A stretch of DNA of 64,000 nt, taken from Candidatus Poribacteria bacterium. GTDB lineage: Bacteria > Poribacteria > WGA-4E > PCPOR2b. Of the stretch, positions 7,850 to 8,965 are shown one piece after another. The stretch is taken from NCBI GenBank assembly GCA_963665285.1, contig OY762266.1, forward strand, positions 1,664,001 through 1,728,000. The letters run 5' to 3'. Numbering within the stretch: position 1 is the first letter of the stretch; every line of letters begins with the position of its first letter. Position numbers and translations under genes: made by a program. Below the pieces are notes generated by a model. It was not told where the DNA came from. It saw nothing but the letters and a program-made list of their open reading frames with translations, and ran no database searches.

Positions 7850-8965
7850 TTAGTCCCACACCTTTCTAGCAGTATCAACAACCATCGATAGTTTACGCTT
7901 CTGATCTTCCCCCGTAATGCGATTGCCAACAACTGAAGTTGAAAAGCCACACTGCGGACTCAATGCTAGCCGTTCTAGCGGCACAAATTGGCTAGCTTCC
8001 TTGATACGCACGGCAAGCACCTCCGACGTTTCTCGGTGCGGCGTTTTCGTCGTGACCAACCCTAAAACAGCAACCTTGTCGTCGGGAATCTCCCTCAACG
8101 GTTCAAATGAACCGGAGCGTTCATCATCGTATTCGAGCAGCAGACGCTGGGCACGGATACCACGAAAAATCGGTTTAGCAATCAGATCATAACCTCCTTC
8201 GACCAACCACCGGCTGCCCTGATTGCCGCGTCAGAGGTGAAAGCCAAAGGTAACCTCTGGAAAACCGCCTATCACAGCGTTATCCATCACAATGCCTCGG
8301 TCCAACCACTGATCAAGCGTCCAACCCTGCTCTTCGTAGAAGCCCCTAGTCTTGGGATCGAGCATCAACGGATAATGGGGAGCATCGAGTTGAATGTAGG
8401 TTGCACCCAGCCGAACCAACTCCGCGACCTCGTCCCGCATAATGTCAACGACATCCGCCAGAAAACTGTCGAGCGTGGGATAGGCGGGCGAAGAGTATTC
8501 TGACGACCAGAAATTTGTCCACAAGCTGGGACTGGGCAACGTAATCTTCGGTATACGACTCGTCCGCGCTCGCAGATAGGTGAACTCCTCCACTGACAGG
8601 TGACGCTTGCGAGTGAGTTGGCTGACCACACCCAAGTTTTTGGGGCGTTCTAGACTTAGGTCCCCTACGCCTTCATCCCCGTGCCAATCACCCCAAAGGA
8701 ACGCATTGAGGTCATATTCACCGAAACCGGCGACCGCTTCTGTCATCTGACTCTGGAAGGATAACCGGCGCATCTCCCCATCCGTAACAACATCCAAGCC
8801 CACCGCTTCCTGAAGTGCAACAGCTTCATCAACCGCTTGATCCTCAATGGCTTTGAACACCGCCTGTGTTATTCTGCCCGCAGCAAACCCACTTCTCGCC
8901 TTGAGAAGTTCAGGCGGACGGAGCAGACTTCCAACGACATCGGTATGCGCAGCAATCATGGGCAT
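7850..8965 (-). CDS. Cobalamin-independent methionine synthase II (MetE C-terminal-like) Zn alkyltransferase with in-frame UGA (candidate Sec245)
   Basis: ORFs 8231-8965 and 7850-8206 share a frame and are joined by one TGA (8233-8231) giving FHL-U-RGNQGSRW; VGSLLRP, VTDGEMRR, YIQLDAP, LEYDDERSG, LGLVTTK, LSPQCGF motifs. Confidence 0.85.
8201..8233 (-). promoter_or_regulatory. UGA plus candidate SECIS hairpin in the MetE-like gene
   Basis: TGA, 11-nt CGCGGCAATCA, then GGG-CAGCC-GGT-GGTTG-GTC stem-loop with a G-led loop. Confidence 0.6.

Follow-up and report, generated by a model that had tools for sequence, protein, structure and literature searches.

A candidate selenocysteine-containing form of the short MetE-like zinc enzymes in Poribacteria

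The stretch of DNA analysed in this study, a window of 64,000 nucleotides from a Candidatus Poribacteria bacterium (contig OY762266.1, positions 1,664,001 to 1,728,000, assembly GCA_963665285.1), belongs to a complete 6.26-Mb genome and carries on its minus strand, at 7850..8965, a single-domain MetE-like gene (Pfam PF01717) that appears complete when one in-frame TGA is read through. The frame, 8965..7850, comprises 371 codons followed by a TAA stop, and its sole interruption is the TGA at 8233-8231, in the context G-F-H-L-TGA-R-G-N. We propose that this triplet (8231..8233, minus strand) is a selenocysteine (Sec) codon, designated U245, or U243 if counted from the second ATG. Under translation table 11 the frame is cut into two open reading frames (ORFs), 8231..8965 (244 aa) and 7850..8206. 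A first-pass annotation of this DNA had taken these two pieces to be one frame split by a single TGA, which was confirmed on the minus strand, where the distal PQCGF motif is also present. It had also given the product as 371 aa; the length of the frame stands, whereas the start is probably the second ATG, at 8959, which is preceded by GAGG seven bases ahead and would give a protein of 369 aa, since relatives of the gene diverge upstream of this codon. It further expected pipelines to call the gene a pseudogene; three database proteins, P0004 (243 aa), P0015 (241 aa), and P0093 (131 aa), terminate exactly before the column of the TGA.

Conservation of the TGA within the phylum is complete. A six-frame search of 61 related genomes recovered an orthologue in 23 of them, 78-100% identical, and in all 23, which represent 23 species and four genera, a TGA occupies the same column (F-H-L-TGA-R-G-N). 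Extending the search to all 176 genomes of the phylum gave no further orthologue; the gene is distributed over 4 of the 31 genera, namely all 20 species of the window's own genus and three sister genera. Among 21 collinear 369-aa orthologues (210 pairs, Nei-Gojobori method; L034 and L041 were dropped for length), the ratio of nonsynonymous to synonymous substitution rates (dN/dS) is 0.089 upstream of the TGA and 0.093 downstream of it, one of the 210 pairs having a saturated dS downstream. Selection is thus equally purifying on both sides of the codon, and this at a mean pairwise dS of about 0.74-0.85 and with no frame shift. Third-position entropy reaches its minimum for the whole gene in the 10-codon window beginning with the TGA, at 0.23, the average over the gene being 0.735. 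The comparative evidence indicates that the gene is not a pseudogene and that it is a real, conserved gene with a recoded UGA.

Outside the Poribacteria the column of the TGA is typically occupied by cysteine. From 1.84 billion representative sequences, 8226 relatives were retrieved, and in an alignment of the query with the best 150 of them (151 rows) the column is Cys in 134 rows and gapped in 8; the remaining 9, mostly frameshifted or truncated rows, show a different letter. Clustering at 90% identity revealed many full-length forms from Anaerolineae, Nitrospirae, Acidiferrobacterales, and others that are labelled as methionine synthase II family proteins. These Cys orthologues ('cobalamin-independent methionine synthase II family protein'; no biochemical characterisation is apparent from the names) are 72-79% identical to the Poribacteria protein over about 369 aa and share the block H-L-C-R-G-N-Q-G-S-R-W-L as well as PQCGF, but they have TGC or TGT in place of TGA. 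From a species-representative genome collection we kept 80 loci, 15 from Poribacteria and 65 from other lineages, and all except one (L122) yielded the motif. Across these 79 loci the codon is TGA in 22 and TGC or TGT in 57, so that the Cys/TGA pairs foreseen in the first-pass annotation do exist at this one column, across species and across phyla. Besides the 15 Poribacteria loci, TGA is found in seven others, from Anaerolineae (L065), Caldilineaceae (L075), Anaerolineales (L076), Chloroflexota (L101), Nitrospinota (L097), Methylomirabilota (L102), and an unclassified bacterium (L108). Such restriction of the TGA to an invariant Cys position is typical of Sec/Cys pairs. Mapped onto a maximum-likelihood tree built from 87 sequences, the Sec label requires seven changes, at least three of which are forced by well-supported branches; judged from this tree, Cys and Sec have therefore been swapped repeatedly in the history of the family.

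The protein scores 58.5 bits against the Pfam family Meth_synt_2 (PF01717; cut-off 21, residues 8-345). It is related to the NCBIfam families PRK06520 (237 bits, cut-off 313) and PRK06233 (226 bits, cut-off 576) and lies outside both models, as both scores are below the cut-offs. Against TIGR01371, which describes the canonical two-domain MetE, it reaches 44.7 bits (cut-off 929.95); it consists of a single domain and is devoid of the N-terminal folate-binding domain. Aligned by hhalign with residues 420-753 of E. coli K-12 MetE (probability 99.5%), it retains the full set of active-site positions. Residues S13, E64, and D194 correspond to the homocysteine-binding residues S433, E484, and D599 of the E. 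coli enzyme, and H243 (codon 8237..8239), U245 (8231..8233), E278 (8132..8134), and C339 of PQCGF (7949..7951), all encoded on the minus strand, correspond to its zinc ligands H641, C643, E665, and C726, the last being the Cys of PDCGLKT. The roles of these zinc- and homocysteine-binding residues in MetE are those given in the available part of Price et al. (PMC7857596). In a 125-member alignment of the family, G12, D62, G63, R67, K140, Y162, D194, H243, C245 (the Sec column), G302, C339, and G340 are invariant, and S13, E64, and E278 are nearly so. The TGA had been placed in the first pass at the H-x-C zinc motif, and the column is indeed that of Cys643 in H641-x-C643, with PQCGF matching the PDCGL cysteine. 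From homology and the predicted fold we infer that Sec245 would also be, as claimed there, a direct ligand of the zinc.

The fold itself was predicted with high scores by AlphaFold (predicted local distance difference test, pLDDT, 95.3; predicted template modelling score, pTM, 0.94). A Foldseek search with this model gave PDB entry 1YPX as the top match (template modelling scores, TM, 0.74/0.85; 25% identity between the aligned structures). The model also matches MetE structures with bound zinc from T. maritima, Candida, and Neurospora, at a TM of about 0.72-0.76 on the query. The Listeria protein in 1YPX, a 'putative vitamin-B12 independent methionine synthase family protein' that we take to be of the short YxjG/YxjH-like type, is also the nearest in sequence (E-value 1.3e-48, residues 7-370) and thus the best solved relative. 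Both proteins contain PQCGF and the H-x-C-R-G-N motif, which reads H-I-C-R-G-N in 1YPX; the Listeria protein differs in having Cys at the position of Sec, and its own function is unproven.

The first pass had asked for the Sec machinery to be confirmed in this genome, and it is encoded there. The genes selA (602 bits) and selB (366 bits) are adjacent, a tRNA-Sec(tca) lies directly downstream of them, and selD is in the window. The tRNA was identified with aragorn, whose listing of 50 genes was checked for SeC and transfer-messenger RNA only. As TGA terminates 687 of the 2268 open frames of at least 350 aa, it is an ordinary stop codon elsewhere in the genome. In other lineages, selB scores above the cut-off in six of the seven non-Poribacteria genomes with a TGA form and in two of the three Cys-form genomes tested. 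The selD gene (5323..6384, minus strand; TIGR00476, 352 bits), which has the senC role and lies 1.9 kb from the MetE-like gene, itself encodes a selenoprotein. Its in-frame TGA at 6324-6322 (G-U-A-A-K) causes table 11 to shorten it to 317 aa, and the codon is followed, 17 nt downstream, by the AGUU loop of a stable hairpin (-26.6 kcal/mol, z -3.3) that none of 200 shuffles equalled. This selenocysteine insertion sequence (SECIS) has the shape of a 9-bp lower stem that contains the UGA and a 7-bp upper stem with the AGUU loop.

A much smaller hairpin, at 8201..8219 (minus strand), follows the TGA of the MetE-like gene, and we propose it as the core of a bacterial SECIS (bSECIS), G-G[G]CAGCC-GGU-GGUUG[G]U-C. 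Its apical stem of 5 bp pairs 8216-8212 with 8208-8204 around a GGU loop at 8211-8209; the outer pair begins 11 nt and the apical loop 19 nt after the UGA. According to the available part of the May 2026 review of the prokaryotic selenoproteome (PMC13188914), the bSECIS model calls for an apical loop of 3-9 nt with a G in its first two positions, an upper stem of 4-16 bp, a distance of 16-37 nt from the UGA, and a minimum free energy (MFE) of -7.5 kcal/mol or lower. The loop (GGU or GUU), the 5-bp stem, and the 19-nt spacing agree with this model in all 30 Sec forms. A 5-bp stem with a G[G/U]N loop occurs in 30 of 30 distinct Sec forms, including 7 of 7 outside the Poribacteria, versus 7 of 56 Cys forms, the other 49 being without it, and all five apical pairs are formed in each of 29 distinct TGA forms. 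Codon choice follows the same division. The loop-forming Arg codon is CGG in 27 Sec forms, CGT in three, and CGC in none, while 39 of 57 Cys forms use CGC, and the loop seen most often in Cys forms is GCU. For the Leu that closes the stem, all 30 Sec forms use TTG or CTG, and 21 of 57 Cys forms use CTC. Seven hairpin pairs are formed in 97.5% of 203 cells, with changes that are one-sided only (G-U/G-C, C-G/U-G, A-U/G-U). RNAalifold recovers the same small hairpin from the Sec set (-6.3) and from the Cys set (-3.1), so the structure is in part a by-product of the conserved peptide, and we read it as a small SECIS that evolved out of a pre-existing near-hairpin. The hairpin CAGCC-GGT-GGTTG of the first pass, with outer G-U and G-C pairs beyond a G/G mismatch, lies where it was described (8219..8201, 11 nt from the codon); it is conserved and tied to TGA forms, though by folding energy it does not stand out from chance. 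A possible outer helix of 10 bp around it (8227-8218 with 8186-8177, within 8177..8227 on the minus strand) is conserved mainly within the genus; it was left out of the core claim, as 88.3% of its cells are paired and the breaks fall mainly in distant genera and other phyla. A permissive Rfam scan of 5000-9200 returned only two chance-level matches to eukaryotic small nuclear and small nucleolar RNAs.

Next to the MetE-like gene in the window are genes of selenium metabolism. Beyond selD lies senB (4045..5121, minus strand; TIGR04348, 402 bits, cut-off 300), which encodes the selenosugar synthase of selenoneine biosynthesis and is likely to start at the methionine of MKICLIT near 4992. The order MetE-like gene, selD, senB is kept in all 15 Poribacteria loci, and senB is present in every one of the 23 genomes that carry the Sec gene. 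Three co-directional genes, also on the minus strand, are located upstream: an Amidohydro_2 gene (9020-10078), a PaaD/FeS_assembly_P-like gene (10092-10865), and a zinc alcohol dehydrogenase (Zn-ADH) gene (10908-12056). The Amidohydro_2 gene precedes the MetE-like gene in 14 of the 15 Poribacteria loci; it and the PaaD-like gene are found in 0 of the 65 other loci, where Zn-ADH gave two weak matches of 28-29% identity. We set these three genes aside as functional partners, as they are conserved only inside the Poribacteria.

In other phyla, genes for selenoneine and for the betaine of histidine recur beside some forms of the gene. The Sec form in L102 lies in the order egtD (TIGR03438), MetE-like gene, senA (NF041186, 528.6 bits, cut-off 420), OpuAC transporter, and that in L108 is directly followed by a senA-like gene. 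Among Cys forms, L123 has a selD fusion, senB (408.7 bits), and a senA-like gene within about 5 kb; in L098 the gene is preceded by OpuAC and egtD, the latter without senA, senB, or selD; and in L091 it is preceded by selD and a TauE-family gene (PF01925). Genes for MttB-family methyltransferases occur near the gene in five loci (L076, at 2209-5965, L083, L115, L116, and L128), and a cluster of enolase-superfamily neighbours occurs in nine, two representatives of which were confirmed with Pfam. In L076, the surroundings of the Sec form include a gene for a PF02574 homocysteine methyltransferase; a URO-D/MtaA-like gene is also among the neighbours. The MttB-family, PF02574, and enolase-superfamily genes point to betaine metabolism; further betaine-related neighbours in other phyla are at L083:4806-5939 and L084:408-1541.

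The mechanism that these observations suggest would begin with the decoding of the UGA at 8233-8231 as selenocysteine by SelB with Sec-tRNA(Sec), guided by the small in-frame hairpin with its 5-bp stem and GGU loop 19 nt past the UGA. Sec would then form the second residue of the H-x-C motif, and the catalytic zinc would be held by His243, Sec245, Glu278, and Cys339. As in MetE, the metal would activate a bound thiol for methyl transfer. Homocysteine is the most likely such thiol, because its three binding residues are kept, although we would put its being the acceptor at somewhat less than an even chance. The methyl donor is probably something other than methyl-tetrahydrofolate, because the folate-binding N-terminal domain is missing; a quaternary-ammonium compound of the betaine type or a methyl-corrinoid protein would be likelier. 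The benefit of Sec may lie in a more nucleophilic and oxidation-tolerant set of ligands. Oxidation sensitivity is a known weakness of MetE. We read the enzyme as a probable core-type zinc-dependent thiol methyltransferase, and the gene context would link its subfamily, in an accessory capacity, to selenoneine and histidine-betaine metabolism. Beyond this, the enzyme might be an unrecognised accessory of that metabolism whose Zn(His, Sec, Glu, Cys) centre methylates a selenol or thiol of the pathway (e.g., selenoneine to Se-methylselenoneine) or moves methyl groups from hercynine-type betaines to homocysteine; this remains a long shot, and we similarly regard a direct role on a molecule of the selenoneine pathway as unlikely.

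Taken as a whole, it is very probable, on the strength of the sequence comparisons, that the UGA encodes Sec and that the gene specifies a complete MetE-like zinc enzyme with Sec at a zinc-ligand position that acts in thiol methyl transfer. Several findings weigh against this reading or parts of it. The 57-nt stretch after the UGA has an MFE of -13.2 kcal/mol, no better than shuffled sequences (z +0.68; 150 of 200 shuffles fold as well), and folding energy was consequently dropped as support. The seven-pair model yields energies between -10.7 and -3.8 kcal/mol (mean -7.5), which leaves some members short of the -7.5 threshold. Covariation was rejected as support as well, since neither the seven-pair nor the 15-pair model contains a two-sided change and 122 and 124 of 500 column shuffles, respectively, match the percentage paired. 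Seven of the 56 Cys forms share the hairpin, in part because the conserved peptide Q-G-S-R-W-L nearly encodes it. No selB was found in the genome of the TGA form L065, a fragmented metagenome-assembled genome. In one Poribacteria genome (G005, locus L027) the orthologue has a second TGA, at codon 130, where 16 relatives have CGA, three CGG, and one CGC, all of them Arg codons. One C-to-T mutation to nonsense or an error in sequencing might explain it, or else the copy is decaying, as some copies may be. Also encoded in the genome of the window are a split MetH and three paralogues with Cys (about 29-36% identical). Finally, the sen/egt neighbourhood is present in just 5 of the 65 non-Poribacteria loci, the other 60 being without sen genes in the fetched flanks, and 22 of the 45 senB-bearing Poribacteria among the 176 searched are without the gene; for these two reasons we regard the link to selenoneine as accessory.

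The weakness of the hairpin, the second TGA in G005, the two table 11 ORFs, and the database gene calls that end at the codon could be taken as signs that the UGA is a true stop, in which case the gene would be either a pseudogene or two separate coding units, one for an N-terminal product of 244 aa and one for a C-terminal piece translated on its own. We consider this highly improbable. The TGA is kept in 23 of 23 orthologues despite the synonymous divergence between them, downstream selection is as strong as upstream, and other phyla share the TGA at this invariant Cys column. Moreover, the only start-like in-frame codon past the TGA, a TTG at 8206, is CTG in 12 of the 30 Sec forms, and the N-terminal piece would be without all four zinc ligands. 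It is the conservation in 23 of 23 orthologues, and not folding energy, that makes the feature more than chance. Reading of the UGA without selenocysteine, by near-cognate Trp, Cys, or Arg insertion or by an unrecognised suppressor tRNA, is just as hard to credit. Nothing specific favours it apart from the one TGA-bearing genome in which selB did not appear; against it stand the complete Sec machinery here, the selB genes of six of the seven other TGA-bearing genomes, the normal role of TGA as a stop in the rest of the genome, the restriction of the in-frame TGA to an invariant Cys, and the G[G/U]N-loop hairpin that is tied to TGA forms. More room is left for the idea that the codon is Sec but the chemistry is different, i.e., that Sec245 is itself the reacting group, its selenolate accepting a methyl or alkyl group in a ping-pong mechanism, or that the enzyme takes a selenium compound of the adjacent pathway as its substrate, for example by adding a methyl group to the selenium of selenoneine or of the SenB selenosugar, or demethylates hercynine-type betaines. 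The available part of the selenoproteome review provides a precedent for a selenoprotein as alkyl acceptor, the methylated-DNA-protein-cysteine methyltransferase (PMC13188914). The surroundings of the gene also fit, as it adjoins selD-senB in every Poribacteria locus, lies between egtD and senA in L102, has a full sen set nearby in L123 and a senA-like gene next to it in L108, and has recurrent betaine-related neighbours (MttB family, OpuAC, enolase superfamily) in other phyla. However, all four zinc-ligand and all three homocysteine-binding positions of MetE are kept, as a conventional zinc-thiolate mechanism needs, and a selenium substrate agrees poorly with the Cys forms of the same orthologous group, which are without sen genes in the fetched flanks at 60 of 65 loci, and with the senB-bearing Poribacteria that do without the gene. 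We therefore think these alternatives rather improbable and favour Sec as a ligand of a thiol-activating zinc.

The gene thus most likely encodes a new form of short MetE-like enzyme in which, as judged by alignment, Sec takes the zinc-ligand position equivalent to Cys643. It shares with MetE of E. coli and T. maritima the catalytic barrel and the zinc and homocysteine residues, and differs from them in the absence of the Meth_synt_1 domain and in having Sec for C643. In architecture it resembles the core methionine synthases MesA-MesD, which the available part of PMC7857596 describes as proteins of no more than 386 aa that consist of one MetE-like domain, conserve the zinc- and homocysteine-binding residues, and use donors other than methyl-tetrahydrofolate (methylcobalamin in vitro). 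MesD (3RPD), the sole Mes family compared, is only a remote relative of it (E-value 6e-7, 32 bits), and that part of the paper mentions no Sec form for any of the four. A possible functional analogue is BHMT/Bmt (PF02574), a zinc-thiolate enzyme that, according to the available part of PMC12366255, converts homocysteine to methionine with a quaternary-ammonium donor; BHMT/Bmt belongs to a different family, and the analogy is drawn only from the betaine-related neighbours and the missing folate domain. Replacement of a metal-ligating Cys by Sec has parallels in formate dehydrogenase (Mo/W-Se) and [NiFeSe] hydrogenase (Ni-Se), for which in-frame bSECIS elements and Cys homologues are likewise described in the available part of PMC13188914. 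In contrast to the redox metal centres of those two enzymes, the metal in the present case would be the redox-inert catalytic zinc of an alkyl-transfer site.

The first-pass annotation did not count the enzyme among the established selenoprotein families, and the literature examined agrees. Neither a PF01717 nor a MetE-like entry is among the 119 families and subfamilies in Table 1 of the May 2026 review (PMC13188914), which are mostly thiol-redox proteins and include no MetE-type alkyl transferase, and this catalogue shows no example of Sec at a redox-inert catalytic zinc of an alkyl-transfer site. Methionine synthase and PF01717 are not mentioned in the main texts and supplements of BSepDB (PMC13326102, whose text is possibly incomplete) and deep-Sep (PMC12013277). 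A literature search linking selenoproteins with methionine synthase returned only unrelated papers, and in the literature on Poribacteria and selenocysteine no title or abstract concerns a MetE-like enzyme. A selenoneine preprint, which reports 827 sen clusters, describes, in its available part, the co-localisation of egtD and a transporter with the sen genes, and the available main text contains no MetE-like gene (10.1101/2022.04.13.486033). We found no paper that joins methionine synthase and selenoneine, and neither methionine synthase nor MetE occurs in the text of PMC13674229.

If the proposed role of Sec is correct, selenium would serve in a new chemical capacity, as a ligand of a catalytic zinc without redox activity, and the enzyme would be the first in nature to coordinate its catalytic zinc through a selenolate. 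It would also offer a natural system in which to study how a selenolate tunes the nucleophilicity and oxidation tolerance of zinc-thiolate sites. Since pipelines call such genes truncated or pseudogenes, the annotation of methionine and methyl-group metabolism is incomplete for sponge symbionts and for several uncultured phyla. The recurrent placement of the gene by senA, senB, selD, and egtD makes it a concrete candidate for an unassigned step around selenoneine. The sponge-symbiont Poribacteria would then put Sec into up to three enzymes of one selenium-handling group, namely SelD, the MetE-like enzyme, and some SenB proteins.

The SenB proteins deserve mention in their own right. One in-frame TGA each was found in senB of 10 of the 45 SenB-bearing Poribacteria genomes (176 searched). 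In the six that were fetched (L129-L134) it falls at a single column, PKK.VFE[LV]-TGA-V[LI]GHLRPVKDP, where the SenB of the window has Cys (..VFELCVLGHLRSVKDP..). SenB is absent from the 119-family catalogue (PMC13188914).

As to other methionine enzymes, the genome was found to contain four single-domain MetE-like genes and no full-length MetE. MetH is seemingly split, with its homocysteine, pterin, B12, and activation modules encoded by separate genes at 5112818-5121732 and 2996856-2997662 of the chromosome (G000:C1). Given this split MetH and the three Cys paralogues, a housekeeping role of the Sec form as methionine synthase is neither supported nor excluded.

There is a weak hint that the gene is transcribed. 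Contigs from two sponge metatranscriptome studies match both sides of the TGA, and three RNA-library records (X17 records 2 and 3, and X19 record 10) span it with at least 31 nt on each side. Because they are only 85-95% alike, these contigs come from relatives, and as the records are contigs and not reads, DNA carry-over is possible.

A few minor observations concern the surroundings of the gene. Between it and selD, a 319-codon ORF (6718-7677, minus strand) has no Pfam or NCBIfam match and is missing from 14 of 15 related loci, with a partial, 81% identical match in L054; it looks like a recent insertion. Elsewhere in the genome, a senA-like gene (66% identical to SenA of L102), egtD, and an OpuAC-type transporter gene lie together at G000:C1:5951771-5956445, 4.3 Mb from selD-senB; the same genes surround the MetE-like gene in L102. 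On the far side of senB, at a distance of 1.8 kb, the window contains a gene for an IS701-family transposase (1017-2270, minus strand; NF049999, 210.7 bits), and gpsA (2710-3744) lies between the two.

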